In this document: positions 2,341 to 63,352 of the stretch, in pieces | Layout of the letters: each line of letters begins with the position of its first letter | Position numbering within the stretch: position 1 is the first letter of the stretch | IMG/VR virus record: IMGVR_UViG_3300028840_006907 | Location: 64,001-128,000 of that record | Origin: a virus | Reading direction: 5' to 3' (one strand) | DNA length: 64,000 nt | The notes under the pieces: generated by a model | The model's input: the letters and a program-made list of their open reading frames with translations, nothing else | What the model was told of the DNA's origin: nothing | The model's database searches: none | Translations under genes and position numbers: made by a program

Positions 2341-5300
2341 ATGTACTCTATTGATGATTTTATTCAAACTGTTTTTTCATATACTCTTCAGAAACAGAAA
2401 TTCTTCGCAGCAGCAGAACGTGCTTTAAAGAAAAATCTCCAATCCTATATACGCCCCGACTTTTTCGGAACTAGTTCGGGAGATGTCCGACTAGATAATT
2501 TACTTGTATCTCTCGCCAATAGATTGGGTGAAGCTGATGTTGAAGATAAAAGAATTTTTCTTGAAGATGCAGTAAGTGATTTTGTCTCAGAAGAGAAGGC
2601 TGACGAGTTAAGAGCAATCCTTGAAACCAAATTGGAAAGAAAACATAAAATCCCTGAAGAACTAGCTGATAAATTTATCAGTAAATCAGGTTTACTTGTT
2701 GATGAAGAGAAAAAAGAATTTGATCGTGTGAAGAAAGATATGGTCAAATTGATCTCAGGTTTTATTTACGGTTTCTTCGAAAATAAATTTAAAGAATTTG
2801 TACGAGCAAAAAAGAAAAAAGAAGATATCGGTAGAGAAGTAGCCCCGGATCTAGAAGTCCTGCCTGATAGTGAATTAATTGATCAAGCTGAAAAAGAACA
2901 AGAATGGCAAGAAGGTTTAACTAAAGATCTGTTTGGATATATCAATAAAAATGTTCCGGAAAAAAGGCGCTATGCTTATAAAATGATCTTGTTAAAAAGA
3001 TTTATGGTAGCACCAGCTAGTAGGATGGGTTTTGTTGAAATGGCAGAAAAGACAGGAATACCCAAATCATCTCTGGAAGAATGGGAAAAAGATTTGGGCC
3101 GTAGACTTGCTGAATATCTCTCTGCAGGTGGCCTTGGCCCTAAATTCGTTAGTGAGGGTGGCCTTTATAAAAAAGATGTTAAAGTTCCCGATTATAAAGA
3201 TGTTTTTAAAAACAAAGAGAATTCGAATGATTTCAAAGATTTCATGGAAGGCAAACAACCAAAAACCGGTAAACCCATGAGTGAGAAGGTAAAAAAAATA
3301 TTAGAGTTGTTTGCTGAAGGTAAAGATACCAAGGAAATCGAATCACAGACTGATGCGAGTATTGGTCAGATAAAAAAATTAAAAAGTACTCATTTCTCTC
3401 CCTGGTATAAAGAGTGGTATGCTGAAATGCTTAAGGATGTCAGAGAAGCTACAGAACGTATAAAGAAAGCTCTTATGATAATTAATGGTGAGACACCTCC
3501 TCCAGCTTCTCATGAGAAATATGTGAATATGGCAATAGCTAAAAAATACCCTCTTGAACTTACTGTAACTTTTAGTGCCAATTATGATAACCAGGATTTA
3601 ATAAAGGAAAGTGATCGAGTTGATCCGGAAAAAGACCCGGTTGATTTTAAATACAAACATTACCAGGTAAAATTAGAAAGGACCAGTAGACCCCGAATTG
3701 AATATACTTTTGATCAAAAATTAACCGATAAAGGTGATTTTGAAGGTAGCCCTCGATCATCATTGGTCATTGAAGGAAATCCTGGTCATGAAGGTTTGAG
3801 AAGAAGGCTCGATGAATATGTCGAGCAAGAAATGAAACCAGAGGGTATCCTTCCTTACGGTCCTTCGGTAAAGGGTAGAAAACCTGTCCAGATCCCTGTT
3901 GAATATGTAAATGAATCTCTTGATAGTACTAAGACCTATGATGGGTCTAAAAAAAGAAGATATCGTGGATTTATTGATTTCGCTGACAAGTACAAAGGTT
4001 TCATGGTAAAAGACCAACCTCATTTAACCCGGGTTCAGGAAGAAAGTAAAAGGGAAGAGAAGAAATTGTTACCTAAGGGTGGAAAAAATGAAATTCGAAA
4101 ATTGATCCAGCATTTAAAAGAAAATATTGGTGATGAAATGGAAGAGACTACACCCGATAAGAAAAAAGTTGAGGTGTGGAAAAAACAGATTAAAGAATTA
4201 CAGGATCATTTGAAGAAAGATTCTGAAAAAGAAATAGTGGATTTTGTCTCAAAACATAAAGAGAGGTTTAAATTCGCTGTCTCTGAAGAGCGCATGAAAA
4301 ATGTTCGTGAATTGATGAAACTCAGAGAACTAGTAGAAAACCAAGAACAACGATTGTTACAAAGAAAAATGAAAGGTGATCCTAAAGATAAGGATACAGT
4401 TAAACTTAAAGAAGATATAGCAACAAATAAAGATAAAATCACTAAGCTCGAAAAAATCCTTGAAGAAACAAAAGAGCCATTTCCTCCACCAGAATCGGCT
4501 AAAGTTCAAAAGTTATTAAAGGAACTTTCTGATCTCGGTATTAAAGACAGAAAATTAGAAGAATTCCTGACTTCAACTGATCTCCAATTTTTTGTTAACC
4601 AGGTACAAGGTGCTCTGGCCAAGGAAGCACAAGATAATATCGCAGGTGTTAAGAAAAACAAAAATATGAGTGATGAGGAAAAGAAACAGGAATATGAAGC
4701 TATTGAGAGAAAACGTGGTGTAAAGCTGAATAAATTTATCGAGTTGTTTGAAGCTGTACCTGAAGACATGAAAAAACGTCTGGAGAAATATAAAAAGGCT
4801 GATCCCAGTGGGTATAAAAAATTAGAAAAGAAGCATGGGGCTCTTTTAAACTGGGTAAATAATCCTGAAAAAGCCCTCTCTAAAGTAAAACAGAATCTTT
4901 CTACACCGAAAACTCTTGAGGCTCCAAAAGGTAAACAGGAATCAGTGGTACCTATGGAGGAAGAGGATGCTAAATACATGCTCAATTGGCTTGAGGCCCA
5001 GTTACAGGGTTTCGATGTTATAGGAGAAAGATTTGGTCAGGCAGCTTTAAAAGCAGAAGGTTTAAGTCCACAAGAGAGAGTTAAGGTAGAAAAACAATTA
5101 AAAGATACAGAAAAAGAGTTTCAGGATTTACGAAATAGAATAGGTGAAATGGAAGGTAAAGGGAAGGCTACCACTAGTGAAATCAAAGATCTGAAAAAAG
5201 ACATACCGACTTATATGAGAACAATAGAAGGTTTAAAAAGTTCTCTTTCTGATTCAAAAGAATCTCCTGCTATGATTATGGCACAAGTTTTAACTGATCG

Positions 5301-6923: not shown

Positions 6924-7682
6924 TTGGAGACATCTGTGAAGTATAGCGTACTTGTACCCTACTATAAACGCCTAGGGCACCTACATAATACCTTTATTTC
7001 CTTTCTACACCATTATTCAGATAGAAATGATTATGAGGTTGTCATAGCAGAAGATTATAAAAATGTCCAGAATAAAAAAGACCATGACGGTCTATCAGAA
7101 ACCATTGAGAAATTCCGTGAAAAAATACCGATAATTCATTTAACTCTTTCTATGGAAACCTGGAATCCAGCTCATGGTTTTAATGAAGCTGCAAAGTGGG
7201 CTTCTGGTGAATATTTCGTTGTAACCAATCCAGAATGTTTCCATCAAGTGAACATACTGGCTGGACTCGATAAAGAATTTGAAGAAGACCCCAATGTCTA
7301 TGTTGTATGTGGTTGTATGAATTATGTCCGTTGTAATTTTTTTATTAAAAACTTTAATGATCTAAATGGAAAATTTCAGAGATGGTACCAACACTCAATA
7401 CATAGAGCAGCCCACTATCATTTCTGTTCAGCTATTTCAAAACAGAATTGGGTAAAAATAGGAGGATTCGATGAAGACTTTGCTATGGGTATAGCCTATG
7501 ATGATGTCGATTTTAAATTAAGCATTCAAAAAGCCAAGATACCCTTTCATATCCGGGATGACCTTCTTACTATACATATTGACCATGGTTCCTTCCCATC
7601 TCCTCCAAATGCTCAGAAATTAGTTAATCGAAATAGAATCACCTATCAAAGAAAATGGGAAGGAAGTAATGAATCTTACTAG
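6924..7682 (+). CDS. putative glycosyltransferase-like protein
   Basis: 252-aa ORF with non-ATG start (TTG 6924 or GTG 6936); weak GT-A-like features only. Confidence 0.35.
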   Translation: METSVKYSVLVPYYKRLGHLHNTFISFLHHYSDRNDYEVVIAEDYKNVQNKKDHDGLSETIEKFREKIPIIHLTLSMETWNPAHGFNEAAKWASGEYFVVTNPECFHQVNILAGLDKEFEEDPNVYVVCGCMNYVRCNFFIKNFNDLNGKFQRWYQHSIHRAAHYHFCSAISKQNWVKIGGFDEDFAMGIAYDDVDFKLSIQKAKIPFHIRDDLLTIHIDHGSFPSPPNAQKLVNRNRITYQRKWEGSNESY

Positions 7683-9762
7683 TTATACCGCAGCCGACAG
7701 TATCCCGATAAAATTGATTAAGAACTTTAAATTGTTAAAGTCCATGACAACAAAAGGAGTCATCTTACCAATCCATGTCCAGTTCATACCCACAAATAGA
7801 TGTAACATGAAATGTGGATTTTGTAGCTGTGCTGAAGATGACAGAAAAACAGAAATGTCCCTTAAAAATGCTAAGAAGATCATCAGAAAATTAAAAAAAC
7901 TCGGTACTCAATCCGTAACCATCACCGGAGGAGGAGAACCACTCCTTTATCCTCATCTCCAAGAATTGTTTTCTCTGTTTAAAGATGCCGGGATAAAAAT
8001 CGGTTTTGTTACCAATGGCCTCTTATTAGGTAAATGTACCTATGAAGATGTAACCTGGTGTCGGATTTCTAATTCTGATGAAAGAAAAATGGACATGGAC
8101 TATTATCACACAATAGCTTATGCTGTTGAAGATAACCCAAACGTGGACTGGGCCTTTAGTCATGTCGTTTCTCCAAAACCAAATATCTCCGAAATAAAAC
8201 GGATCATAGAATTTGCCAATCTCCATGATTTTACCCATGTCCGATTAGTAGCTGATCTATTGAATTATAAAGAAGTAGATTTAATGCAGTTAAAAATCAC
8301 TCTTCGAGATGAAAATGTCGATGATGATAAAGTCATCTATCAAAGTAGAAATACCCCGCTCAGAGGCGGAGACTGTTATATATGCTATCTTAAACCCATG
8401 ATAGGGGCTGACTGTAATGTGTACGCTTGTTGTTTAGAGGCTAATGAACCTGTATTAATCCAGAGAAATAACGAAAGGATGTATTTATCTATAAAGGATG
8501 TTGTTCCAGGGGATTATGCTTGTGAATATGGAAAGATTTTAAATGTGTTTCATAAAGAGGGTGAAGAAGGCTTGGAAATAGTTTTGCAAAATAATAGGAC
8601 TATTTATGTTTCGAAAGATCATCTTATGCTTAAATTGACAAACCCTGAAATTAGACATAAGAGAAAGAAGTTATTATCTGACTATGAATTAGATACAATA
8701 GAATCTTCTGAATTAAGAATTGGAGATTTACTTCCGGTCAAATATAAATATGATATTAGTGAAATAAAAGAAGATACTATATCTGAAGAAGAAGCAGAAT
8801 TAATAGGATATTATGTAGCTGAAGGTTGGTCCAATGAACGAACTTGTATAGTTGATAAAAAATATCCTACTAGAACTACCACTATAGGATTTATGCTAGG
8901 GAAAGAGTCAAGAGAATATATAAGAAGATTTGAAGAAATTTGTGATATTTTGAATCTAAATTTTTCTATGACTGAACGTAGAACTGGTATGCAGTATCAG
9001 ATAGGTGCACATAAACCCTACGATGACTTAATTGTACACTGTGGTAATAAAGCAGAATTAAAAAAGATCCCTCCTTTTATTTTAAACGGCTCTGATAAAA
9101 TAAAGTGGAAATTTATTCAAGGCTATTTTGGAGGTGACGGGAATTTTCAAACTCCTTCTAAAAGCTATGATGGTTTTAAAATGAGAATGAGTACTGTCAG
9201 TAGACAACTAGCTAATGATATAATTTATCTCTTTTGTACTTTAAATATTCATGCTTCTATGAGAGTTGAGAGACGTGAAGGAAAAATGATAATAGAAGGA
9301 AGAGAGGTAAATGCTAAAGATCGGTATCATATAAATATAGGGGGAGCCTATAATTTAGAAAAAGCCCCATTCCTAAATGTAATTCAAACAAAAGAAAGAA
9401 GTCCTAAAAGAGCCCTCGGTTTTTTGAAAGATGAGGATAAGGGCATTATGTTTGTACCAGTTAAAGAGATCAGAGAGAAAAAGTTAGGAAAATTAGTAGA
9501 CATTCAAGTGGAAGGTTCAAATAAATTTATATCTTCATTTGGTATAATAGTTCATAATTGTGGCGTCCAGTATGCTCTTAAAAAGCCTTCAAAGAATCTT
9601 CCTAAGAAACTGAGCCTAGGAAGTGCTTTTGATCTTGAGAAGATAATTGAGAACAGTAATAAGCCCCTGGACGGGAGCATGTGTTATCGATGCTATTATA
9701 GTAATTATAACAAGATACTAGGATCCATCCTGGATGATACCGATCATATGGAGTTTGTATGA
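7669..9762 (+). CDS. radical SAM protein interrupted by an intein
   Basis: CNMKCGFC (CxxxCxxC) Fe-S motif near N-terminus; about 376-aa insertion with intein hallmarks. Confidence 0.7.
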   Translation: MNLTSYTAADSIPIKLIKNFKLLKSMTTKGVILPIHVQFIPTNRCNMKCGFCSCAEDDRKTEMSLKNAKKIIRKLKKLGTQSVTITGGGEPLLYPHLQELFSLFKDAGIKIGFVTNGLLLGKCTYEDVTWCRISNSDERKMDMDYYHTIAYAVEDNPNVDWAFSHVVSPKPNISEIKRIIEFANLHDFTHVRLVADLLNYKEVDLMQLKITLRDENVDDDKVIYQSRNTPLRGGDCYICYLKPMIGADCNVYACCLEANEPVLIQRNNERMYLSIKDVVPGDYACEYGKILNVFHKEGEEGLEIVLQNNRTIYVSKDHLMLKLTNPEIRHKRKKLLSDYELDTIESSELRIGDLLPVKYKYDISEIKEDTISEEEAELIGYYVAEGWSNERTCIVDKKYPTRTTTIGFMLGKESREYIRRFEEICDILNLNFSMTERRTGMQYQIGAHKPYDDLIVHCGNKAELKKIPPFILNGSDKIKWKFIQGYFGGDGNFQTPSKSYDGFKMRMSTVSRQLANDIIYLFCTLNIHASMRVERREGKMIIEGREVNAKDRYHINIGGAYNLEKAPFLNVIQTKERSPKRALGFLKDEDKGIMFVPVKEIREKKLGKLVDIQVEGSNKFISSFGIIVHNCGVQYALKKPSKNLPKKLSLGSAFDLEKIIENSNKPLDGSMCYRCYYSNYNKILGSILDDTDHMEFV
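8431..9558 (+). mobile_element. intein with LAGLIDADG-type homing endonuclease domain
   Basis: Starts with Cys (CLEANEP), block-B-like SKDH, LAGLIDADG-like LIGYYVAEGW and FIQGYFGGDGNF, ends IIVHN followed by Cys. Confidence 0.6.
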
Positions 9763-11983: not shown

Positions 11984-12019
11984 TCTAGGAATGTAAAGTA
12001 TTAGAGGATTATTAAGGGG

Positions 12020-15018
12020 AGGGAAACCCCGCTCAGATGCAGGGAAGAAGATTTCATTAAGAAGTTTTAGGAAGAGCCCCGCAGAGGAGGAACCTCGCAA
12101 GATGCGGGGAAAAGGAACTTCAGGCAATTGGCTGGGATTAGCCCCGCGAAGGTGCGGGGAAAACAGTTTCCATGAACTATATTAGGGAGAGCCCCGTTGA
12201 CACGGGGAAAAACCCGTCTTTACTTAGTGAGATCGAGGAAGGAACAGCCCCGTTGATACGGGGATAAAATAATATGACTTTTACGAATCCTCTAGGGACA
12301 GCCCTGCAGAGTGCAGGGAAAAGTAACGTCTGGGAATTGTTTAGGATTAGCCCCGCGAAGGTGCGGGGAAAGCCATAGATTTTATATTGACACAGGAAAA
12401 ACCCCGGTATAGTCCGGGGAAAAGTACGTAATCAAGATGTAAGAGGATTAGACCCGGCGAGTCCGGGAAAAGATTGGCCCAATCACTATTAAGTAGGGTG
12501 GGATAGCCCCGCAGAATGCAGGGAATAGATGCCTCACTTCATACCACTGCGTCAACCCCAGTAGAGTCCGGGGAACATGAGTGTAAATCTCTGTCGTAGG
12601 TTCAACCCCGGAGAGATCCAGGGGAAATGGGTACAACTTTGTGTACAAGGGGTAGCCCCGGAGAAATCCGAGGAAAATGAGTGTAAATCTGTGTTGAGGG
12701 TCCAGCCCCGCTCAGTGCAGGGAATATTAAGGGTCAAAACCGGTTGCCCCTGCGTCAACCCCGGTGAAGTCCGGGGAACATGAGTGTAAATCTCTGTGGT
12801 AGGATCAACCCCGCAGAGTGCAGGGAAAAATTGAACTTTTTAATCAACCCTGTAACAGCCCCGGAGTCAGTTTTGACAAGTCCGGGGGAATATCACTTCG
12901 TAAAGGAGTGGCTGTCAAGGGGGCAACCCCACAGAGATGTGGGGGAAAGTAAGCCAACGTTCCGGCATAGGCATAGCCCCTGAATTTACAGAGGGCAATT
13001 TTTCCAGTGTCCAGAAGAAGATGCAGGGAGAACCCCGGAAAGTCCAGGGGAAAATGTGTCACAGAACAACTCTTTGTGATCTCCAGGGTGAACCTCGCAG
13101 AGGTGCGGGGGAAAAGTGTCAATGAATACCAGTATGAGTCAGCCCCGGTATAGCCCGGGAATAATTACTTCTAGTCTGATAGAAGGTGCAACCCCGGGAA
13201 GTCCGGGGAAATCGGTCATAGCCATCTGGACCAGGAAGAACCCCGGTGAGATCCGGGGAAAAGGACGTTTAAATCCTGACATAGTAGCTAACTGAGGCGT
13301 AGCTCCGGTCGGGTCAGCCCTGCAGAGAGCAGGGAACAAACATAGGTAATAAATCGGCACGTGACAGCCCCGCAGAGAGGCGGGGATATATAGCGTGAGT
13401 TGCAGGGTAAGGTTCAACCCTTGTTTACCAAGGGAAAAATACCGGCAGATAAGAATTTAGGATGACCCCCGGTGAAAGTCCGGGGAAAATAATTAATACG
13501 CAAAACAGCAGGGCCAGTCCCGCGAGATGCAGGGAATGTTCAGCCAGTTTGTGTAATATTTCAGGAGACGGTGGTGCAACCCTGTCAAGGACAGGGATAT
13601 GCAACATCTGTGGCTCTACGAGGATCAGCCCCGGCAAGTCCGGGGAATTATCTTTTTATAAATGCCAAAAATAACAGTTGGGAGGGGCCAATTCCGCTGA
13701 TGCAGAAAGACATTTCATAATTAATATATTTATGGAAGAGCCCCGGTGAAATCCGGGGAAGTCAAGTAATTACAGCTCGCTGACCACTGGGGGTAGCCCC
13801 GGTAAGATCCGGGGAAAAGTTTGTTTTGAAACAAACGCTAGGAACAGCCCCGCTCAGGTGCGGGAGAATCACTGCATATTTGGTTAATGGCCCCCCTGAG
13901 TCAATCCCGCTCAGGTGCGGGGAAAATAAAGAGATAGACTAATTCAATATGCAGGAAGAACCCCGCTATATGCAGGAAAATTTAAAAAGTATGGATATCT
14001 CCTTGAGTCAACCCCGGAGATCCAGGGAAATGTAGGCACTCGTTGTCCTTTGTCGAAGTGTGAAGGGCAAACCTCGTTGATACGAGGAACAAATTTAGTT
14101 TTACTTTTGAATAAAAGTGGTCAAGCCCCGCTCAGGTGCAGGGAATAGATAAGTATACCGACGATAGCCAGGACAGCACCTGTGGTTTAGCCCTGCATGT
14201 GCAGGGAATAGTTGAGTTGAAGATTGAAGAAAAAGATAAAGTAGGGTCAGCTCTGCATGTGCAGAGAATAGCCTTTCTTCAAGCGTTGACTTGGGAGTAG
14301 GTGGGGATCAGCCCTGCACATGCAGGGAATAGAATGGTGAATCAAATTCCATTTTGTCAAAGAACGGCGACAGCCCTGCCAGTGCAGGGAATATGATTTT
14401 AACGATGGTAAAATTGGGAAGGGGTCAGCCCTGCACATGCAGGGAATAGTCGCTAGTTCAAATCCAATCGCCCCGACAGGATCAGCCCTGCATACGCAGG
14501 GAATAGAAAATACTGACGATAAACTAGCGATATGGGATCAGCCCTGCATACGCAGGGATATAGCTTGACGAATGGCCGTTTTAATGCCAGGAGTAACCCC
14601 GCTGCGAGGAATAGTCATTTCAAATATATAGGTAAAGCCCCGCGAAAGAGCGGGGGTATAATATGGCGGATTTTGTTCTATTGGTGGAATCCGGGCCATC
14701 CCCGTAGATTGACACGGGGAGATCTTTTAGAAATCTACCAAGGTGCCTTTCCGGAGTCATCCCCGTATATACGGGGGAGATTTCAATTCAGGGAATTTCG
14801 GTACAAAATTGGTCGGTTTATCCCCGTATACACGGGGAATATTGTTTCAATAGGGCATAGCAGATCTAGGATCGGGGAATCCCCGCAGGGGCGGGGAACA
14901 TCTCGGATTTATTAATCAAATTCAAACGTTTTTCGGGGAATCCCCGCAGGGGCGGGGAACATTGTTTTAAGAGGTGGTAGTTACCTCGTAGGGGAATCCC
15001 CGCAGGGGCGGGGAACAT
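12020..15018 (-). CRISPR. CRISPR array 1: about 55 hairpin repeat units, three identical leader-proximal repeats, progressively divergent distal repeats
   Basis: Leader-proximal repeat (minus strand) ATGTTCCCCGCCCCTGCGGGGATTCCCC at 14874-14901, 14935-14962, 14991-15018 with 33- and 28-nt spacers; periodic CCCCGC/GCGGGG-type hairpins back to about 12020. Confidence 0.8.
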
Positions 15019-15127
15019 ACTAAGTCATAATGCCATTCAAATCAAAGGTTTATAGGAACCCTAATTTTCTACCAAAGAAAAATGTACTTGTCATGTATAA
15101 ATGTCAAAGAGCGTCAGAGAGAAATCC
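15019..15127 (-). promoter_or_regulatory. CRISPR leader 1 with conserved ~50-bp block shared with leader 2
   Basis: 15058-15112 nearly identical to 22627-22677; contains TTGACA on the minus strand. Confidence 0.5.
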
Positions 15128-17359
15128 CTAGTGGATATACCGAATCCATTCATATCGAATTTTCATCGTTTTATAAGGAGCTTTTTTTCTCCCTGGAAAT
15201 ATGTTTCCTTCAAAAAGGAAAAATTTTTGAACAATTTTAAATTCAGCGTTTGATGGTGTCAAGCTCTGTGGTGCATAATCCGAACGCCAGTAATTATTAC
15301 AATATATAAATTTTTCTTCTCTGTCTTTTTGTATAAGGCCCGGAAACACCACTAAAACTATCTTTTCGTTTTCAATAACAATATCCCCTTGATAAATAGC
15401 TATTTCTAAATCCAGACCATCCTGCTCTATCACACGAGCATATTTCGAGAGTTTCCCATCAATCTTTACTTTAGCTTTAGGGGGAATATCAAAAGTTATC
15501 CATTCACCTTTTATGTCCTTAATGCTTTGAATAGGTTTTTTAACTGGAATTTCTTGAAAGACATGATCTTGGTATTCTGCTTTTTTAAGGATTTCTCCAT
15601 CTTTTTCCATATTAAGCAATAAAGCCTTTTCCATGATGTCTTTAAGTTCATAGAGATCTTTTTCAGTTAAGGGCTCTTTTGTTCCGAATACGATGGAACC
15701 TACATTCTCTAATCGAGCGATTTTATCAAAACCCTGTTTCCGGACAAAGTCTATGGTAATATGTTCTATTTTTCTATTTCTTGAAAGTCTTATGATTCTT
15801 ACAAATTCAGTTTTAATTGTGTCTTTGAAATTATCAAAACTTAAATGATCTTCTACGTAGGGATGATACAAATCCGCTATAAGACTTAATAAAATTTCTA
15901 TGTCTTCAGGTTTATCCTGTTTACGGTTGTAATCATAAGCTTTAATAATTTCTTGTCTCATTTCCATTAATATATCAGGAGCCATTATTTCACTTAAACT
16001 GGTAGATCCTTTTTTGTCCCGATAAAAGGGAGCTGTTGGAAGTAAGGGAATCCTGATAGCAGCACAAAGTTCTGACATTACAATTGAGGTTAAGAACAAA
16101 TTCAATCTGTCTGAATATAATGCCCTGATATTATTACGTTCTTCTTTTTTAATAGGTGGAACATAAATGTATAACCATATTTTATCTTTTTTAGGGTAAC
16201 ATCTGAAAATACGAAACATTATTTGAGAGAAGGTCACCTGACTCTTTCCATAACTTGTATTATGTAAAACAGCAGCAGGAGGCCAATCATACCCTTCATA
16301 GAATATTCTGCAAGATACGGCGACCCAGTATTTTTTATGATTACGTCTCAATAACTCTCTATTTTTTTTCTGAGTTTCCGGTGTGACTAAATCCAGTACT
16401 TTGGACGCAGGATATATTTCGTGAATAGCTTTTAAATATTTTTTAAGGGTTCCTTCCTCTCTGAACCGGTTCCCCATGTCAGGTAATATGACAATGTGTC
16501 TTTGATCTTTGTGCTCTTTCATATATCTAATGATCTGAGTAAGGGGATCTTTCCTATAGTGAGTGAAACGGAAATTGAATTCTTTGATTTTTATGATTGA
16601 GAGATAGTCATTTAATGGGATAACCCATTTTTCAAAATGATGTTTATAAGCATTGGGGACTATTTCTCCTCTGTCTGTGCGGTGGTAAGTAGCTGTATAA
16701 AAATTTACGTTACAAGTAGGTTCATGGATGGTACATACATCTCTGACAAAATCACCCAAATGAGTGGAATCTAGTGGGGTTGATTTTGAATGATGGCATT
16801 CATCTACATGTACAGTTAAATTTCTAAGGGCTTTCTTTTTTTCATAGTTGGTTAATTTTTCCCAGGTCATGACAAACCCTCTATGGGTAGCTGTAGCAAT
16901 AGGGCCTGTTATATGTTTTTCATTGTACGGGTATTTTCGAGGATCTGCTAAAAGGAATTCTTTAAGTCCTTTAATGGATTGAGGGTTTTCACTATTGAAT
17001 TTATGTTCTTTTGGTACTTCCCACAATCTTACCATACCTTTATATTTGATTTTTATTTGTCTATTTTGGGATCTGCAGAAATTTTCACCTATTTCTATTG
17101 TTGGTGCGATAAAGATATGTTTTCGAGTATTTTTAGATATTATGATTTCATCCAGGGATATGCATACTGCTAAAAAAGTTTTGCCGACTCCCCCTGGTGC
17201 ATCAAAGATCATGTATCTGAATTTTTTCCCATATTCTTTTGCATTGCATTGCCAGCCAGAGGGTATCATGATCCCTGATTCAAGTTTTTTATTATAGGTA
17301 CCAAGGTCAACCGGTTCTATTTTAATAGATTGCTGGAAAAGCGGTAATAGCTTTTTCAT
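15128..17359 (-). CDS. SF2 helicase, Cas3-like helicase module without HD nuclease domain
   Basis: Walker A DAPGGVGKT and DECHH box; in-frame stop 18 codons upstream excludes an N-terminal extension; no HD dipeptide. Confidence 0.6.
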   Translation of the reverse strand: MKKLLPLFQQSIKIEPVDLGTYNKKLESGIMIPSGWQCNAKEYGKKFRYMIFDAPGGVGKTFLAVCISLDEIIISKNTRKHIFIAPTIEIGENFCRSQNRQIKIKYKGMVRLWEVPKEHKFNSENPQSIKGLKEFLLADPRKYPYNEKHITGPIATATHRGFVMTWEKLTNYEKKKALRNLTVHVDECHHSKSTPLDSTHLGDFVRDVCTIHEPTCNVNFYTATYHRTDRGEIVPNAYKHHFEKWVIPLNDYLSIIKIKEFNFRFTHYRKDPLTQIIRYMKEHKDQRHIVILPDMGNRFREEGTLKKYLKAIHEIYPASKVLDLVTPETQKKNRELLRRNHKKYWVAVSCRIFYEGYDWPPAAVLHNTSYGKSQVTFSQIMFRIFRCYPKKDKIWLYIYVPPIKKEERNNIRALYSDRLNLFLTSIVMSELCAAIRIPLLPTAPFYRDKKGSTSLSEIMAPDILMEMRQEIIKAYDYNRKQDKPEDIEILLSLIADLYHPYVEDHLSFDNFKDTIKTEFVRIIRLSRNRKIEHITIDFVRKQGFDKIARLENVGSIVFGTKEPLTEKDLYELKDIMEKALLLNMEKDGEILKKAEYQDHVFQEIPVKKPIQSIKDIKGEWITFDIPPKAKVKIDGKLSKYARVIEQDGLDLEIAIYQGDIVIENEKIVLVVFPGLIQKDREEKFIYCNNYWRSDYAPQSLTPSNAEFKIVQKFFLFEGNIFPGRKKAPYKTMKIRYEWIRYIH

Positions 17360-17382
17360 TGTCTTTTTCCTCTCAAATAAGT

Positions 17383-17412
17383 CCTGGAAAGCCTTTTCAG
17401 GGGCTTTCCAGG
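17383..17412 (-). other. 11-bp stem-loop between micro-ORF and helicase gene
   Basis: CCTGGAAAGCC / GGCTTTCCAGG inverted repeat with 8-nt loop, about 25 nt upstream of helicase ATG. Confidence 0.4.
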
Positions 17413-17444
17413 ATTAATGTACTGTGTATTCTATATCAACACTT

Positions 17445-17600
17445 TCAATCGTTTTTATCAATCTCCGTGGCTAATACCGACATAAATGACATTCCGGTTC
17501 CTCCTGGTAATTCAATAATAGAAGGTCTTTTGATGTTCTCTTCTAAATTCCTAGAAGCGAGTTGCCAAGAATAGGCTTTTATAGTTTTTGTATTATTCAT
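17445..17600 (-). CDS. micro-ORF (51 aa) between cas6e and helicase
   Basis: GGAGAT 8 nt upstream of ATG at 17600; no known motif. Confidence 0.25.
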   Translation of the reverse strand: MNNTKTIKAYSWQLASRNLEENIKRPSIIELPGGTGMSFMSVLATEIDKND

Positions 17601-17628
17601 TTTAAAATCTCCATATAAAAGGTTTATT

Positions 17629-18273
17629 TTAATAAGATTTATACGGTGCAATAAGCATCATACCACATCCGAAACCTTTACTCTTACCAATTCCATTATA
17701 AATAGTATTCACAAAAAGATTTTTATTGACTACCTGAAGGACTCCTCGTAAATCAATACTGAAAAAAGATACAACTTTACCATCTTTTTTTTTGAATTTA
17801 CAGAATTGAAAAGATTGAACGGAATGCTTTTGAATCATATTTTTAAAACCGTAACTTTGGCCACGTTTCTGAAGCCAATTCTTTGAGGATTCGTGAGCAA
17901 TGAAATTCCAATTATAGGGTTCATCAAGAACTTTCATTTCATTTGCCAGATCCGTCATGATTGAAACCTTTTTCCTGGTTTTCAATTTACAAACTTCGGC
18001 ATTGAGTCTGAGATCGTATTGAAGAAATATTCCAGATTTTAAATTATTTAAATCGAATACTTTTGTTTGTGTAGTGTATTCGTCCTCTGGAGGATTTGGT
18101 TTCTTTTTTGATATGATATAAAGTTCACCATTATAGAGATAATAAAGGAAATCTCTTACCCTGTTAGATCTTTGATCACCAAAAAATTCCCAGACTTTTT
18201 GATGAAGCTCATATATACCTTCGGTGGGAGAATATCTTCTCAAGCTGTCACTGTAAATTTTACTCAGAAACAT
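17629..18273 (-). CDS. cas6e: Cas6e (CasE) endoribonuclease
   Basis: Start set at internal Met (GGAGG RBS); MFLSKIY N-terminus and C-terminal GIGKSKGFGCGMM resemble E. coli CasE. Confidence 0.75.
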   Translation of the reverse strand: MFLSKIYSDSLRRYSPTEGIYELHQKVWEFFGDQRSNRVRDFLYYLYNGELYIISKKKPNPPEDEYTTQTKVFDLNNLKSGIFLQYDLRLNAEVCKLKTRKKVSIMTDLANEMKVLDEPYNWNFIAHESSKNWLQKRGQSYGFKNMIQKHSVQSFQFCKFKKKDGKVVSFFSIDLRGVLQVVNKNLFVNTIYNGIGKSKGFGCGMMLIAPYKSY

Positions 18274-18910
18274 TCGATACCTCCTTCCATCCCATATACT
18301 CAATTCGGGATCGGTATTGTTTGGGACCGGTTACCTGATCAAAACGTTGATTGCTTTTTACTATTTTGATACTGGTATCGGTACCTTCCCAAAATATTCG
18401 GTTCTTTTCACGCCCTTTAAGACTACCATTAAGAAATTCAGGAAGAGAGTACTGTTCAAACGCCTCTGAGAGGCTCTCAGCCTTAACGATCTTAGGATCG
18501 GGTGGTATGTCATAGGAACAGCATTTCCTTCCAAGAAAGGGGGTATAGATGGGCCTATTAAGGGCTTCCATTATTTTCTTCAAAGTATAGGGACAGTTTT
18601 CATTCTCCCATATACATACGGTAAAGATGGCATTGACTAGGTAAAATCTATTCGAGACAATTCCTGGTCCGACTCTGACAATATGGAAATCTTTTAGAAT
18701 AGTACCAGGATTATCTTCCCTACAGGCAAATCCTAGTTGGGCAATCTGAGTTAATTCTTTCACCATTTCTCTTGAGACTCCAAGAGAAGCAGCGATTAAC
18801 CCGCTTACGCCAGATTTGGTAGGGTGATCATCTGTCTTTCGGGTATTACCCTGAAGGGGGAGACCCCAGGCGGATAGAGTACCCGAAAGAAGGAATAATA
18901 AATAATTCAT
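18260..18910 (-). CDS. cas5e: Cas5e (CasD)
   Basis: MNYLLFLLSGTLSAWG and YTPFLGRK resemble E. coli CasD MRSYLILRLAGPMQAWG and YTPYLGRR. Confidence 0.8.
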   Translation of the reverse strand: MNYLLFLLSGTLSAWGLPLQGNTRKTDDHPTKSGVSGLIAASLGVSREMVKELTQIAQLGFACREDNPGTILKDFHIVRVGPGIVSNRFYLVNAIFTVCIWENENCPYTLKKIMEALNRPIYTPFLGRKCCSYDIPPDPKIVKAESLSEAFEQYSLPEFLNGSLKGREKNRIFWEGTDTSIKIVKSNQRFDQVTGPKQYRSRIEYMGWKEVSNVSE

Positions 18911-18933
18911 AATATTATAACTCCTGGTAACAA

Positions 18934-20019
18934 TTAGAAATCGATGAATTTAATAAGTTCGTTAAGTGATCCTTCTTTTGTGAGTACATTCAAGATCCTA
19001 TAATCCATTTCATGGTAACATGAATCAAAACTACTTTTCATGTCAAGAAGGGCTTTGACAGCATTTTCCATAACCGCAGGACCTTTAATAGGAGTATGGA
19101 AGGCTTGACAGAGACTTCGTGGGGCAGTTGGAGCTTTTTCGATCATAACGAATGCTGGCCATGTTTGACTATCAGCACATCTGTTTTTATTAGCTGAGGG
19201 GGATGAAGTGGTTAATACTTCGACTATCTGTCGGATGGTTTTGATAGCTAGTTCTTTATTACCTTGAAGATTTTTCGTTAAGAGCTTGGAATTGATTACA
19301 AAGAAACTATAATAGACACCCTGGGTAAAATAGAAATTATCTAGGTGACCTGAACCTTTGGTTCCTTCTAATCCAAGGTTATCGGTAGCTGTAAAATAGT
19401 CGGTTTGGACAGATCCTATATCATTGACAGTAAAAGCGAAATTTGAGGACAGTGAAGCTTCAACATCATATTGGGGCAGTTTTGCAATCATGCGACCGGT
19501 AAGGGCTGTTCTGATTCCTGTATTTTCTTTTAAAAAGAAGAATTCTTGATCAGTGGGTTTATGCCCCTCAATAATTTTGTCAATCAGTTCTTCAATATGT
19601 TGTCTTTCGCTCGGTTGAATTTTAATGGTTTCGGTTTTAAGAAGATCAACCTTTTTTTTCTTTTTCTTTGTATTTTTATCATCTTCTTTTTCAGTGTGCT
19701 TTTTGATATCAACAAAAGTACCAATAAATTTAAATGCGTATTCTTCAGCTTTTTTAGGTGATATTCCACCATCAATTAATCTTTTCTCGACATATTTTCC
19801 AATAAGAGGAGTCTGAAGACCTATATCGATTTCGCACCTTTCAAATAGAGCCTTGTTTAAATCATATTTTCGATTTTGTGAAGACGAATAACCTCGGTTG
19901 GTATCATTAAGTTTCATTGTTTTAGGACGTCCGTCCTGGCCTCGGTTTATGCTAGATACAGCTACACCAGTGAGAAGGTGAATTAACCAGTAGGGGTCTT
20001 TAATAATAGTTTTAGACAT
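18934..20019 (-). CDS. cas7e: Cas7e (CasC) backbone subunit
   Basis: 361 aa; N-terminal SSINRGQDG...SSQ pattern like Cas7e SxLNRDD...SSQ. Confidence 0.75.
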   Translation of the reverse strand: MSKTIIKDPYWLIHLLTGVAVSSINRGQDGRPKTMKLNDTNRGYSSSQNRKYDLNKALFERCEIDIGLQTPLIGKYVEKRLIDGGISPKKAEEYAFKFIGTFVDIKKHTEKEDDKNTKKKKKKVDLLKTETIKIQPSERQHIEELIDKIIEGHKPTDQEFFFLKENTGIRTALTGRMIAKLPQYDVEASLSSNFAFTVNDIGSVQTDYFTATDNLGLEGTKGSGHLDNFYFTQGVYYSFFVINSKLLTKNLQGNKELAIKTIRQIVEVLTTSSPSANKNRCADSQTWPAFVMIEKAPTAPRSLCQAFHTPIKGPAVMENAVKALLDMKSSFDSCYHEMDYRILNVLTKEGSLNELIKFIDF

Positions 20020-20045
20020 AAATACTCCTTGATATTTATTATTTA

Positions 20046-21989
20046 TTATATGTTATTTGAATATTCTCTTTCCCAGTAGAACTTGACATCTTTGCTCCAG
20101 TGGGCATACCCTTCCATGAAACTGATGATGTTAAATCCTTCCATTCGAGAAACAACATCAGCAAATACTTTCCAGTTTTTTTGTATATCCGTTTTATTGA
20201 AACTCATCATTTCGTCAACATGTCGGCGGTTAATTTTTTGAGAACCCATTTGGGCACCGAAAGATTGAGAAAAATCCAGATCCTTAGCTTTAAAAACAAT
20301 TAGTAGAAGAGGTACGAAAAGAGTCTTCATATCTTCTGATCTTAAAGCAGGGAAATGCATAGACATTTCTAAAATAAAATTCAAATAAAGGTCTTCATGT
20401 TTTAAGATATCGATGTCAAAACATCGGGTAAATACCCTATGTTTTTCTGTATTTCTAATAGTCCCGTACCAGGACAGGAATGGTTTGGTAAAGACCTGGT
20501 TAAAATGAGGTAGGTTTAATTTCCTGTATTCGATATGGGCGAAATTCTCATATTCTAATGGTTGTAGTTTAAGAGGTTTAACAACTTTTTTATTTAAGGT
20601 TTCGATAAATTGTTCCTTAAAATATTTCTGTAAACCTCTCTTTTCAGTACCTACATTTTTTTCAAATGTATCGAAAGCTTTAACTACCATCTTTTCCAAC
20701 CATTTTTCGATATTATGATTCTTGAGAACTTCATAGAAGTATTCTTCAGTTTCTGTCAGAAATTCGTGAAATATTAAAGGTTCGGTTTTATCAGTTCCCC
20801 AGAACTTTCTTATATAATTACAGGTATACCATCCTATAAGATATGAGTGTTCTCTGATATTTAAAGTAAACGCACTATCTTTATAGAGTTCTTCTGGGAT
20901 ATCGAATTTATTTTCCTCCCATCCAAAGAGTTTGGCTTTAGCCATATTATAACCGAAAGTCCATAATCCGAAATCAGTTATTCCAAGATATTCTCGGTTC
21001 TCCATGAAATGACTCACCACTAAAGCTGGAGTTAATTTTTTAGCTGGTAGTAGATAGGTCACAAGATCGAGATGGCTGGTAAAGTCCAGGGGTTTCCGGA
21101 AACCTGTTTCTTTGCCTTTTATAATGGGTGAAAGGATATGACGTGGTTTGACATAACAGTTACCATAATTCCTCGTTTTTATCTTTCTAACCATTAATTT
21201 GGAATGATTGCCACAGATAGTACATGATTCATCAAATTTATCAAAGATAAGATGAATACGTAGAGGCATTTCCCAGAGCGGGTAATAAGGATTCATCTCA
21301 TCCAGGGAAACAGTAGCTTTGTTTTTACTATCAACGGTATCACTAAGCCATGGGAGTGTTACACCTTTTGGATTTCCTCCGAATTCAAACATGGTCTTTT
21401 TAATAATAACATTAGACCATATTGTTTCCCATAACGTGGAACCGGTAATAATAGTGGTAAGAGAACCATTGGCACCGGCTGTTATCGAAGTACGGTATCC
21501 TTGGCCTCCCATAATGGCACTGAGTTGATTAAGATAAAGGGCAATTGTAGCACAGGATTGGCAAAAAGTATGTATCTTTGCTTTTTGGAAGAAATCTTTA
21601 CCAGCTTTAATTGTCGCTGTCCCTGGAGTATCAAAGAGGAGATTACCAACATTTACGATTCTTTCAAGGTCCTGTGGCCGTTTATCCTGTAAAAAACGAG
21701 GACCTTTGCCATCTAGTTCAAAGAGTTTTGGTTTAAGTTTTTCTAGGATGGCTTTTTGGTTTGGTGCTTTTTTGAATAGTTTTTTCCATTCTTTCTTACT
21801 TGTAGGAGCAAGATAAGTGTTGAAAAAACCTATGAGAAGCCGTACACCTACAGCATTGAAATCGGGTCTACCGAAATCGAGAGCTATTATAGGGTTATTA
21901 GGTTTTGAAGTTATTTTGTAGGGTGGAATGTTTTCCCTGGTACCGTCTTTTCGGATGACGGGGATCCAAGGGTCCTTAATTACATTCAT
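20046..21989 (-). CDS. cas8e: Cas8e (Cse1) large subunit with about 145-aa C-terminal extension
   Basis: MNVIKDPWIPV and CQSCATIALY match Cse1 DNWIPV and CGGCTAIALF; GGAGGT RBS. Confidence 0.8.
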   Translation of the reverse strand: MNVIKDPWIPVIRKDGTRENIPPYKITSKPNNPIIALDFGRPDFNAVGVRLLIGFFNTYLAPTSKKEWKKLFKKAPNQKAILEKLKPKLFELDGKGPRFLQDKRPQDLERIVNVGNLLFDTPGTATIKAGKDFFQKAKIHTFCQSCATIALYLNQLSAIMGGQGYRTSITAGANGSLTTIITGSTLWETIWSNVIIKKTMFEFGGNPKGVTLPWLSDTVDSKNKATVSLDEMNPYYPLWEMPLRIHLIFDKFDESCTICGNHSKLMVRKIKTRNYGNCYVKPRHILSPIIKGKETGFRKPLDFTSHLDLVTYLLPAKKLTPALVVSHFMENREYLGITDFGLWTFGYNMAKAKLFGWEENKFDIPEELYKDSAFTLNIREHSYLIGWYTCNYIRKFWGTDKTEPLIFHEFLTETEEYFYEVLKNHNIEKWLEKMVVKAFDTFEKNVGTEKRGLQKYFKEQFIETLNKKVVKPLKLQPLEYENFAHIEYRKLNLPHFNQVFTKPFLSWYGTIRNTEKHRVFTRCFDIDILKHEDLYLNFILEMSMHFPALRSEDMKTLFVPLLLIVFKAKDLDFSQSFGAQMGSQKINRRHVDEMMSFNKTDIQKNWKVFADVVSRMEGFNIISFMEGYAHWSKDVKFYWEREYSNNI

Positions 21990-27032: not shown

Positions 27033-27322
27033 AATGCCTTCTTTCTTCTTTTTCGTCTATGTTCTAAAAGTATTTTTCCCATTTCATAATTTGTGATTTC
27101 TTTGGCACCCATTTCAATAGCTCTTTTTCTTCGGCTTTCTACCAAATCGAAATGAATAAAACCGGTTCTACTTTTTTGTATCCAGTTTTTTTTCATTCCA
27201 ATCTTTTCTGCAAATTCGAGTAATTCTTTAATACTAATATCAGAAAACATGTGACAGTTTTTCACATATCTTCCACGAAGTTTCCAAAGGTTATCTTTTA
27301 ATTCATCTACATATATTGTCAT
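27029..27322 (-). CDS. hypothetical protein (DUF4031-like?)
   Basis: 97 aa; YVDEL...CHM...HFDL pattern, recalled family only. Confidence 0.3.
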   Translation of the reverse strand: MTIYVDELKDNLWKLRGRYVKNCHMFSDISIKELLEFAEKIGMKKNWIQKSRTGFIHFDLVESRRKRAIEMGAKEITNYEMGKILLEHRRKRRKKAL

Positions 27323-27849
27323 GGTAATGTTAATCCGAATTTGTCAAAAATTCCTATGATTGCTTCAGCATTACCCATAGCATCATCTAGTGGATTATGG
27401 GTATGTTTTGTTTTTCGAAACTTCTTTTTCCAGTTCCTTTGAGCGTTGAATTTTTTTACAAGCCCACTATATAGATCCCCGATTCTCCTGGCACTATGTC
27501 CAAAAGGATTGTTATTACAAAAATGCCATAGATAATAATTTATGAATTGCCAGTCGAAAACGGGGTTATCCGAAATGAATACAATTCCTTGTTCTTTTTC
27601 ATTTATATTTTTTAACCATTGGTGAAATTTTTCTATTACTTTTTTGGGTGGAGGGAATTTTTTAACTTCTTTATATGAGAATCCTGAGACAACTAGAGCT
27701 GATTCGATAAATTTATTTGTTATAGGGCGTAATTGACTATAAAAAGTCCTGTTTAATTCTGGCTCTACAACTACCGCTCCGAAACAGACCATGGAATAAT
27801 CGCCGGGGCATGGACCGTCAGCTTCAATATCTACTGAGATAAGTTTCAT
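27319..27849 (-). CDS. putative 3'-5' exonuclease (DEDD-like)
   Basis: N-terminal VDIEADGP motif. Confidence 0.45.
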   Translation of the reverse strand: MKLISVDIEADGPCPGDYSMVCFGAVVVEPELNRTFYSQLRPITNKFIESALVVSGFSYKEVKKFPPPKKVIEKFHQWLKNINEKEQGIVFISDNPVFDWQFINYYLWHFCNNNPFGHSARRIGDLYSGLVKKFNAQRNWKKKFRKTKHTHNPLDDAMGNAEAIIGIFDKFGLTLP

Positions 27850-47800: not shown

Positions 47801-47872
47801 TGGTATACACAACTTAAAGAGCGGTCCTTCATGTTAACGTAGGTAATTTTCTCTGTAAGTTGTTGATTTATA

Positions 47873-48282
47873 TGGAGGTGAGGAGAGTTGAACTCCTGTC
47901 CGCGAAGGTATCTTGAGTAAACCTCTACATGTTTAGTCTATGGTTTAAATCTTATTCATAATCACGTTCACAGACAAACTTAATTAAGAACCAGTCTCTA
48001 GTCTCATTCATTGGTCAAGACTCCTCAATGAACCAGAACCCGTTTGGCTATCCGGAATTAACAGGGTTCAGTTAAAACCGGATTTGTCGTTTTTTGTTTA
48101 AACGACGGCTTCTTCTGCTTGATGAATAGCAGCAAGGTTAAGTGCTGAAAACATCGCACAGAAGTTAACTGTATTAGTTTTTTCAGTTATTATTGAAATC
48201 GGCTTTTTTACGAGGCCAACCGATTAACCTCGACATGCAGTTTACATTTCAACTCATCACGTCGAAAACCAAGTACACCCCC
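47873..48282 (-). ncRNA. ssrA: tmRNA (SsrA)
   Basis: Minus strand starts GGGGGUGUACUUGGUUUUCGACG, has GCAUGUCGAGG...GGUUGGCCUCGUAAAAAAGCCG, ends GGACAGGAGUUCAACUCUCCUCACCUCCA; 620-bp ORF-free gap. Confidence 0.65.
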
Positions 48283-62603: not shown

Positions 62604-62767
62604 ATGAAAAGATTTTAAAAATGAATATGAAAAAGAAAGAACAGAAAAAGGCAATAAAATGGGGCAGAAGAAAGATATACATAGGAAGAAAAAGATTAAT
62701 GCCCGTAAACGAAAACCGTGTAATCGGGATTGCGAAAACTATAAAAAATTCAAGTGTTAATATATAG

Positions 62768-62845
62768 GGCCGAGTGGTGAAGTTGTTTTAACACGGTAGT
62801 CTGCAAAACTATTATGCGTCGGTTAGAATCCGACCTCGGCCTCCA
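62768..62845 (+). tRNA. tRNA-Cys (anticodon GCA), CCA encoded
   Basis: GGCCGAG/CTCGGCC acceptor, loop CTGCAAA, T-loop TTAGAAT. Confidence 0.55.
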
Positions 62846-62861
62846 GTTCTTTGAAATAAAT

Positions 62862-63061
62862 AAGTATATCGAGTCCACGCGCAGATGTTAAGTCTGTGAG
62901 GAAGCTCAGGACATCACCGCTGACGGAAGGAGACGTAAGTCGTAGGTACTTCCTAGGATGCAACACAAACAGACCTATGCCGGTGAGCGGGGCTATGATG
63001 GTCGGGTTAGTGGCAAAGATAAATGTGGACATAAAACAGAATCCTGGCTACGGATATACTT
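62862..63061 (+). ncRNA. candidate structured RNA with RNase P-like P1/P4 motifs (about 200 nt)
   Basis: No ORF, locally GC-richer; GAGGAAGCUCAGG and ACAGAAUCCUGGCU can pair with a bulged U; terminal helix AAGTATATC/GATATACTT. Confidence 0.3.
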
Positions 63062-63068
63062 ATTATAC

Positions 63069-63175
63069 GGAGAGGTAGGTTTAATTGGTAAAATCAGTGC
63101 TTTGCACAGCACCTAAGCTAGCAAGGTGCCATTCCAGGGATGGATTTCGGGGTTCAAGTCCCCGTCTCTCTGCCA
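63069..63175 (+). other. oversized tRNA-like element (107 nt) with canonical T-arm and CCA end
   Basis: GGAGAGG/TCTCTCT acceptor, D-loop with GG, GCA-anticodon-like loop, 34-nt extra region, T-arm CGGGG TTCAAGT CCCCG. Confidence 0.35.
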
Positions 63176-63186
63176 ATAAATTATAC

Positions 63187-63275
63187 GGAGGTAGACCGGC
63201 TGGACGAGGAGCCTGTCTTGAAAACAGGTAGGGCTGTAAAAGGTCTTCGGGGTTCAAGTCCTCGTGCCTCCGCCA
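63187..63275 (+). tRNA. tRNA-Ser (anticodon TGA), CCA encoded
   Basis: Stem CCTGT/ACAGG, loop CTTGAAA, long variable arm. Confidence 0.6.
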
Positions 63276-63352
63276 TAAAAACAATAGTTATCAAAAGGTA
63301 ACTATAAGTTCTTTGACATTTCGGTTATTATGAAGTAAGCACATATTTATAT

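Follow-up and report, generated by a model that had tools for sequence, protein, structure and literature searches.

A virus-borne RNase P RNA of bacterial type, reduced to its catalytic domain and encoded among phage tRNA genes

Introduction

Few ribozymes are common to all cellular life, and RNase P RNA is among them. Organellar RNase P RNAs, those of mitochondria and plastids, are strongly reduced and keep P1 and P4; they are non-viral and are reduced differently from the phage RNA described here. The tRNA cluster of phage T4 encodes small stable RNAs with no assigned function that are co-transcribed with the phage tRNAs, and we know of no resemblance between these RNAs and RNase P.

Bacterial type-A RNase P RNAs usually measure 340-420 nt, and their catalytic domain has been defined as the helices P1/P4/P5, P2/P3 and P6/P15/P16/P17 together with P18 (PMC4919922). 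Once isolated, this domain cleaves pre-tRNA with or without RnpA, at a reduced rate and with a reduced affinity for the substrate (PMC4919922). Several catalytic-domain-only RNAs have been engineered (Green 1996; Loria and Pan 2001; Wu 2012, as cited in PMC4919922). A natural case is the Pyrobaculum-type RNA, which lacks nearly the whole specificity domain (Lai et al. 2010, as cited in PMC4919922).

Among viruses, the only other RNase P-like RNA that we found on record is that of camelpox virus, which did not cleave pre-tRNA in vitro (PMC3001073). A 2024 review on RNase P mentions no phage-encoded RNase P RNA (PMC11143913), and Lui et al., who ran all Rfam models on megaphage genomes, obtained only tRNAs and tmRNA (PMC8172020). 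We found no description of a phage-encoded RNase P RNA in the full-text literature; most subscription journals lay outside the coverage of that search and an earlier description is possible.

Here we describe a virus-borne RNase P RNA of bacterial type which consists of the catalytic domain alone. Its gene is located in the IMG/VR virus record IMGVR_UViG_3300028840_006907, of which we analysed positions 64,001 to 128,000 (64,000 nt, hereafter the window). The window appears to come from a huge phage; it contains 21 tRNA genes, a tmRNA, type I-E-like cas genes, a long repeat-hairpin array and an intein-bearing radical-SAM gene.

Location and general features of the gene

The miniature RNase P RNA gene extends from position 62862 to position 63061 of the window on the plus strand (200 nt, from the first to the last base of P1). 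It lies between a tRNA-Cys(GCA) gene with an encoded CCA (62768-62845, +), which ends 16 nt before P1, and a 104-nt tRNA-like gene ending in CCA (63069-63172, +), separated from the 3' end of P1 by 7 nt. This is the position at which a sequence-only reading had proposed an RNase P-like RNA. The same reading had described the segment as GC-richer, and its G+C content is indeed 0.49, compared with about 0.31-0.39 in most 4-kb blocks of the window (block 12001-16000, at 0.45, is the exception). The tRNA cluster that it had noticed is also there, with a gene count below the "about 25" that had been announced: ARAGORN predicts 21 tRNAs, to which one tRNA-like gene recognised by Rfam only and one tmRNA are added. 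The term ORF-poor was loose, as the segment shares sequence with two ORFs, of 60 and 69 aa; these ORFs are not conserved. A stop-free frame across at least 90% of the RNA is present in only 36% of 77 homologues, and the absence of a conserved reading frame among the homologues argues against small overlapping coding genes.

The downstream tRNA-like gene at 63069-63172 is missed by ARAGORN and matches the Rfam tRNA model with 30.1 bits. It is predicted to fold as a cloverleaf with an extra arm, the acceptor stem, D-arm and T-arm being normal. About 32 extra nucleotides follow an anticodon loop reading UUGCACA (anticodon GCA, possibly Cys).

Rfam models and type assignment

When the window was scanned with Rfam at gathering thresholds, no RNase P match was obtained. 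A permissive scan of 62700-63300 returned RF00373 (RNaseP_arch) at exactly 62862-63061, with 46.8 bits for a gathering score of 84. The match spans model positions 1-288 of 288 and has an E-value of 4.3e-12 for the 601 nt searched, which becomes roughly 5e-10 when rescaled to the whole window. The sequence-only reading had named Rfam covariance models as a way to check its proposal, and the RNase P models do align over the full length of 62862-63061. None of the Rfam RNase P families has a gathering score low enough to admit the window, owing to the loss of the specificity domain: some 117 model positions of this domain (P7 to P12) are represented by about 31 nt of the window when aligned by Rfam. 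Among the relatives described below, L075 passes the gathering score of RF00010, the bacterial type-A family (106.8 versus 100 bits), and L003, L017, L068 and L208 obtain 46-57 bits with the same model. Such sub-threshold scores of miniature RNase P RNAs would explain why phages of this kind have been annotated with tRNAs and tmRNA only (PMC8172020).

Within the RNase P clan of Rfam, only the best-scoring family is reported and lower-scoring members are suppressed. On this basis, the best clan match of the window and of its relatives is RNaseP_arch or RNaseP_bact_a, and not the type-T family RF02357. An archaeal origin, to which the RNaseP_arch match could have pointed, was rejected: the relatives fit the bacterial type-A model best, and P6, P16, P17 and the GGU of L15 are type-A traits. 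The RNaseP_arch match is best read as the effect of a shorter model that tolerates the deletion, and not as a sign of archaeal ancestry. At both its 5' and its 3' end, one member of the family, L003, differs very little from E. coli M1 RNA (the M1 sequence used shows 100% identity with annotated rnpB), and the 3' part of L003 aligns with an RNase P RNA annotated in Salmonella.

A large family of homologues in viral contigs

Pattern scans combined with a covariance model allowed us to recover at least 187 homologous loci in viral contigs, corresponding to at least 161 distinct RNAs. The G+C content of these RNAs ranges from 0.31 to 0.66 and the contigs reach 527 kb. A scan of metagenomes gave at least 120 matches. 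An exact pattern for both P4 strands matched 11 viral contigs, and a pattern leaving four P4 pairs free matched 91 (92 sequences). Longer and shorter spacings gave 52 and 16 further contigs, respectively, and a pattern resting on J5/15, L15 and CR-IV, and silent on P4, matched 61 contigs of which 31 were new. The covariance model, R1, was built from ten sequences; it matched 92/92, 64/68 and 31/31 of the pattern sources, nearly all of them along the entire model, with scores of 34-174 bits (172.5 bits for the window RNA). The closest relative of the window RNA that we found is only 81% identical. When the window RNA and three of its relatives were compared with GenBank phages by BLAST, no phage carrying the RNA was revealed, the only match being one of 40 nt to a bacterial rnpB; a Megablast of 20 kb of the window found nothing.

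The pattern was also run on 185,579 species genomes and gave 24 matches, of which 15 are real and almost all lie on MAG contigs carrying tRNA arrays. The model failed to match eight of the 24 and matched one more only weakly (16.9 bits); these, which include Paenibacillus and Neobacillus isolates, were treated as chance. One carrier is an isolate, Achromobacter anxifer LMG 26857 (NZ_CAHLAR010000005.1, L110:6070-6302, +), in which the RNA gene is found among 32 tRNA genes in 8 kb. The locus probably belongs to a prophage or to a large phage residing in the strain, which is a possible experimental system for the miniature RNase P RNA.

The family varies in size. Sixteen relatives of about 150-170 nt carry no remnant of the specificity domain, not even the stub described below, and their P5 is capped by a short loop that still forms P6 (L172:12435-12599, L169:9722-9885, L179, L171 and 12 more). 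At the other end of the range, members of 264-352 nt contain a tRNA-like module (L194:7447-7752, -; L210:5480-5831, +; L188:339-682, -; L211:746-1009, -). The module sits at the tip of the inner hairpin, in the place of the specificity domain, and shows a T-arm (GGGUUCAAAUCCC) together with an acceptor stem; its last letters are ...CCACCA in L210 and L188. The Rfam tRNA model gives 42.8 bits at 7589-7668 of L194, and ARAGORN calls none of these modules. Such modules may represent tRNA genes nested within the RNase P RNA and dividing it into two pieces, or a tRNA mimic built in cis. A different arrangement is seen in L007, where a second, partial copy (3411-3509, -; model positions 47-152, 32 bits) adjoins the full-length copy at 3200-3410.

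Covariation and secondary structure

Covariation was assessed on 78 distinct alignment rows, that is 77 distinct RNAs and the partial second copy in L007. The structure was counted with pseudoknot brackets and included P1, P2, P3, P4 with its bulged U, P5, P6, a P7-like stem with an inner hairpin, P15, P16 and P17. In this structure 93.0% of the cells are paired, compared with 61.6% in shuffles and 32-42% when the partners were slid by 1-3 columns. Double (compensatory) changes are present in 44 of the 51 pairs, and the covariation score is 0.717 versus 0.177 for shuffled alignments, with none of 500 shuffles reaching 0.717. In the aligning model R1, P2 and P4 were specified incorrectly, P6 was left out and the 3' strand of P15 stood in the register of the window, one or two columns off the register that was counted, so that the alignment was not fitted to those helices as counted; P2, P4, P6 and P15 are nonetheless 91.5, 100, 78 and 92.7% paired. 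R1 was kept only as aligner and search tool. RNAalifold, run on the alignment with no structure supplied, predicts P1, P3, P4, the stub, P15 and P16, and 26 of its 32 predicted pairs are compensatory. The MFE fold of the window RNA alone has only a slight advantage over shuffles (z -2.0) and lacks the pseudoknots, and it was set aside as evidence. Conserved structure in homologues, the second check proposed from the sequence, is therefore found over 77 distinct sequences for P1 to P7, P15 to P17 and both pseudoknots, and together with the full-length Rfam matches it supports the proposal of a reduced RNase P RNA.

The RNA is closed by P1, in which AAGUAUAUC (62862-62870, +) pairs with GAUAUACUU (63053-63061, +), as had been predicted for a terminal P1-like helix. 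Its columns are 86-92% paired, with compensatory changes in 7/7 counted pairs. P2 is formed by GUCCAC (62873-62878, +) and GUGGAC (63025-63030, +) and shows changes on both sides in 6/6 pairs. The P3 hairpin (62880-62898, +) has 6 bp in the window and is reduced in most relatives to 3 bp and a tetraloop, its three outer pairs being 95.9% paired.

CR-I (GAGGAA) and the 5' strand of P4 occupy 62898-62911 (+), and CR-V (ACAGAA) and the 3' strand of P4 (UCCUGGCU) occupy 63036-63049 (+). The P4-like strands GAGGAAGCUCAGG (62898-62910) and ACAGAAUCCUGGCU (63036-63049), on which the initial proposal was founded, are both present; A-GC[U]CAGGA and UCCUG-GCU form 8 bp with the single bulged U, as proposed, at 62906. 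Four pairs of P4 covary. In the search that left these four pairs free, standard pairs were observed in 92/92 sequences, in 23 different combinations. The P4-independent anchor led to the same picture, since GAGGAA, the following NN-U-C and the P4 pairing are kept in nearly all well-aligned homologues that it retrieved, and ACAGAA/ACAAAA persists in that set. In two relatives (L206:1816-2009 and L209:2105-2298), P4 reads GAGGAAAUUGGUGCC / ...GUCCAAUUAC, with the pairing AAUUGG/CCAAUU and no obvious bulged U; these may be an exception to the otherwise universal P4 bulge.

P5 pairs CAUC (62912-62915, +) with GAUG (62957-62960); 99.7% of its cells are paired and 3/4 of its pairs covary. In the P6 pseudoknot, CCGCU (62917-62921, +) pairs with AGCGG (62986-62990) in the P17 loop, and 5/5 pairs covary in the alignment. 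A measure independent of the alignment gave the same helix: J5/7 and the P17 loop share at least 5 contiguous complementary bases in 72 of 77 sequences, with a mean of 5.65 versus 3.74 +/- 0.12 when partners were swapped between sequences (0/200 controls reach 5.65).

The specificity domain with CR-II and CR-III (P10 to P12, J11/12) is absent. What is left is a 29-nt stub (62925-62953, +) made of a P7-like stem, GGAAG/CUUCC, which encloses the hairpin GAC-GUAA-GUC. The stem and the hairpin are 93.1% and 97.7% paired across the alignment, and the flanks of the stub, GGAG and CGU...AC, are conserved. This stub may derive from P7 and P10.

Beyond the stub, J5/15 (CAA) and the 5' strand of P15 (CAC) lie at 62961-62966 (+), and P15 is completed by GUG at 63010-63012. 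GCAA at J5/15 is conserved in 90-97% or more of the sequences and was not imposed by the search patterns that yielded this set; P15 covaries as CG/AU/UA/GC. P16 (GACC/GGUC) encloses the P17 hairpin (GCC...GGC) at 62972-63003 (+), the loop of which forms P6, and these two helices are 95.1% and 89.8% paired, respectively. The 3' side of L15 (GGGUUA, 63004-63009, +) contains the GGU motif at 63005-63007, conserved in at least 97% of the 77 sequences and imposed by no search pattern for that set. In bacterial type-A enzymes, this GGU pairs with the 3'-CCA of the tRNA. CCA is encoded by 18 of the 21 tRNA genes of the window, which fits the retention of the motif. Across phages, no correlation was found between CCA encoding and the presence of GGU: the former is bimodal (about 0% or about 100%) and the latter universal.

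CR-IV reads AGAUAAAUG (63017-63025, +), for AGAUGAAUG at the same place in E. coli M1 RNA, and its AG..AAUG is conserved although the search patterns behind that set did not impose it. The P18 hairpin is absent, as the 3' strand of P15 runs almost straight into CR-IV (GUG-GCA-AAGAUAAAUG). P18 is also missing in some bacteria.

Comparison with known RNase P RNAs

On these structural grounds, the RNA is assigned to the catalytic domain of bacterial type-A RNase P RNA (P1 to P6 and P15 to P17), without P18. It shares with the type-A RNAs (E. coli M1/rnpB, RF00010) helices P1, P2 and P3, P4 with the bulged U, P5, the P6 pseudoknot, P15 to P17 and the GGU of L15, and CR-I, CR-IV and CR-V are present as in M1. 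It differs from them by its 200 nt, by the lack of P8 to P14, CR-II and CR-III beyond the stub and of P18, by a gene placed inside a tRNA array and not alone on a chromosome, and, for the window copy, by a score under the gathering threshold.

The type T (type P) RNA of Pyrobaculum and other Thermoproteaceae is likewise natural, of similar size and essentially a catalytic domain alone. That RNA is archaeal and cellular and has several archaeal proteins, whereas the phage RNA is viral and has P6, P16/P17 and the L15 GGU; these type-A hallmarks, and a best clan match that is not type T, mark the two as independent reductions. The engineered catalytic-domain-only bacterial RNAs have the same architecture as the phage RNA but are laboratory deletions with reduced rate and affinity, whereas the phage family is natural and widespread. 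The camelpox (orthopoxvirus) RNA is, according to its description (PMC3001073), virus-encoded and similar to RNase P RNA; unlike the phages, its virus is eukaryotic and has no tRNA arrays.

Genomic context and search for a protein partner

The genes coding for the miniature RNAs are strongly associated with tRNA genes of the same strand. Of the tRNA genes that ARAGORN predicted around 92 RNAs, 995 share the strand of the RNA and 7 lie opposite; a tRNA gene is found within 100 nt of 54 of the 92 RNAs and within 30 nt of 48, and 12 of the 92 fetched pieces contain none. The order tRNA-Cys then RNase P RNA is kept in L251. A scan for promoters and terminators around the gene of the window revealed no signal, relative to shuffled sequence, that would mark a transcription unit of its own. 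As no convincing promoter or terminator separates the gene from its neighbours, co-transcription followed by release through tRNA processing is the simplest reading, and tRNA-Cys probably shares a transcript with the miniature RNase P RNA.

An HMM for RnpA (3 sequences) run against 6381 ORFs from the window and the flanks of L001-L183 found no RnpA-like ORF. In a Pfam search of 60 small ORFs of the window, PF00825 was not among the best 25 (E up to 0.0029) of the 36 families matched. Clustering of the ORFs within 3 kb of 161 loci revealed no recurrent neighbouring protein family indicative of a subunit, the largest family, present at 13 of the 161 loci, being a homing endonuclease or RNase H-like protein. 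The search for a protein partner covered 64 kb of the phage and up to about 15 kb (mostly 1-15 kb) per relative.

Several other features were recorded near these RNAs. A DUF2828/DUF7788 protein is encoded near the RNase P RNA in 7 loci, and weak matches to Y-RNA-like RNAs (YrlA; 31-38 bits, below the cut-off) occur beside tRNA genes; the loci listed for these two observations are L005:1299-1413 (-), L003:178-299 (-) and L047:7300-8859 (+). L030, L036, L045, L059 and L065 encode tRNAs with a CUA anticodon, labelled 'Pyl' by ARAGORN; these tRNAs are amber suppressors, which suggests phages with a recoded TAG stop codon. The tmRNA of the window (47870-48282, -; Rfam 159.9 bits) has an unusually long predicted tag peptide (EKTNTVNFCAMFSALNLAAIHQAEEAVV), and tmRNA genes also accompany the miniature RNase P RNA in L009 and L211.

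Elsewhere in the window, the gene at 7669-9762 (+) encodes a radical-SAM protein whose sequence is split by an intein, which itself carries a LAGLIDADG homing-endonuclease domain. An ORF at 27322-27849 (-) encodes a putative RNase T / DEDDh-type 3'-5' exonuclease (Pfam RNase_T, E 3.7e-08), which might take part in tRNA 3'-end trimming and could equally be a DNA proofreading-type exonuclease. A G+C-rich stretch of 3 kb (12000-15050) without ORFs of at least 150 aa contains about 50 degenerate CRISPR-repeat-like hairpins (CCCCGC...GCGGGGAA) at an unusually short spacing of about 50-60 nt, with a more regular array at its end (14184-15018). It adjoins type I-E-like genes on the minus strand (15128-21989), which include a helicase (15128-17359), a Cas7e-like gene (18934-20019) and Cse1/Cas8e (20046-21989).

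Discussion

What we observed is homology to RNase P RNA, a shared secondary structure, conserved core residues and a genomic context of tRNA genes. From this we infer a catalytic RNA, and we consider it likely that the phage RNA is a working RNase P RNA which matures the phage's own pre-tRNAs and tmRNA, probably with the RnpA of the host. The gene would be co-transcribed with the neighbouring tRNA genes as one precursor, from which the RNA would be released by trimming of the 3' end of tRNA-Cys and by an RNase P cut just before the tRNA-like gene that follows; cleavage at the 5' end of 63069-63172 would set the 3' end of the miniature RNA. The RNA would fold by way of two pseudoknots, P4 and P6, and bind the acceptor end of the pre-tRNA through the GGU of L15, paired with the 3'-CCA, and the adenosines of J5/15. 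Metal ions held at P4, around the bulged U, would then hydrolyse the 5' leader. The protein partner would most probably be host RnpA, as the phage DNA analysed yielded no rnpA gene. The phage may gain by this an extra, or host-independent, capacity for the 5' maturation of 20 or more tRNAs and of tmRNA. The reduced rate and affinity of isolated catalytic domains (PMC4919922) make the efficiency of such an enzyme in the cell uncertain.

In a wider form, large phages of many bacterial phyla would carry their own RNase P ribozyme limited to the catalytic domain, with a minimum of about 150 nt, allowing maturation free of the host RNA and possibly of any protein, and some lineages would have grafted a tRNA-like module at the former site of the specificity domain, the part that recognises the tRNA. 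We put this generalisation forward tentatively, as slightly more doubtful than probable.

The RNA could also have been given a new job, either as a ribozyme or ribonucleoprotein re-targeted away from tRNA 5' leaders to substrates such as tmRNA, mRNAs or other phage RNAs, or as structural or processing punctuation in tRNA operons. Loss of the domain that checks the tRNA elbow would relax the choice of substrate, some relatives carry a tRNA-like module in its place, 12 of the 92 loci have no tRNA gene nearby, and the window also encodes a tmRNA. The association with same-strand tRNA arrays is nevertheless strong and specific, the CCA-binding GGU is retained and nothing points to another substrate, which makes a change of function unlikely.

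A non-catalytic decoy, whose scaffold would capture host RnpA or pre-tRNAs and thereby inhibit or redirect host tRNA maturation, is improbable to a still greater degree. RnpA binds the catalytic domain, which is the part retained; no phage rnpA gene was seen in the DNA examined; and loss of the specificity domain lowers the activity of engineered RNAs (PMC4919922). Conservation, however, extends to elements that serve substrate binding and chemistry and not protein binding (the L15 GGU, the J5/15 adenosines, the bulged U and ACAGAA), and a decoy would starve the phage's own tRNA arrays, in which its gene sits and which themselves need RNase P. The last reading, either a pseudogene left from a piece of host RNase P RNA acquired by chance or two small coding genes, to which the two overlapping ORFs and the score under the Rfam cut-offs could lend some weight, is effectively refuted and of negligible probability, because the at least 161 distinct homologues of 31-66% G+C keep every helix through compensatory changes and show no conserved reading frame, and because DNA-level similarity to bacterial rnpB is limited to short universal motifs.

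Conclusions

If the phage RNA is indeed a working RNase P RNA, it would be the first catalytically active viral RNase P RNA known and the smallest of bacterial type. A widespread phage family reduced to the catalytic domain would define a minimal bacterial RNase P and would offer a test case for the need of a specificity domain. An RNase P of 150-200 nt may also find use in guide-sequence-directed RNA cleavage. For the biology of large phages, the finding would add 5'-end maturation to the translation functions, such as tRNAs and tmRNA, that they are known to carry.
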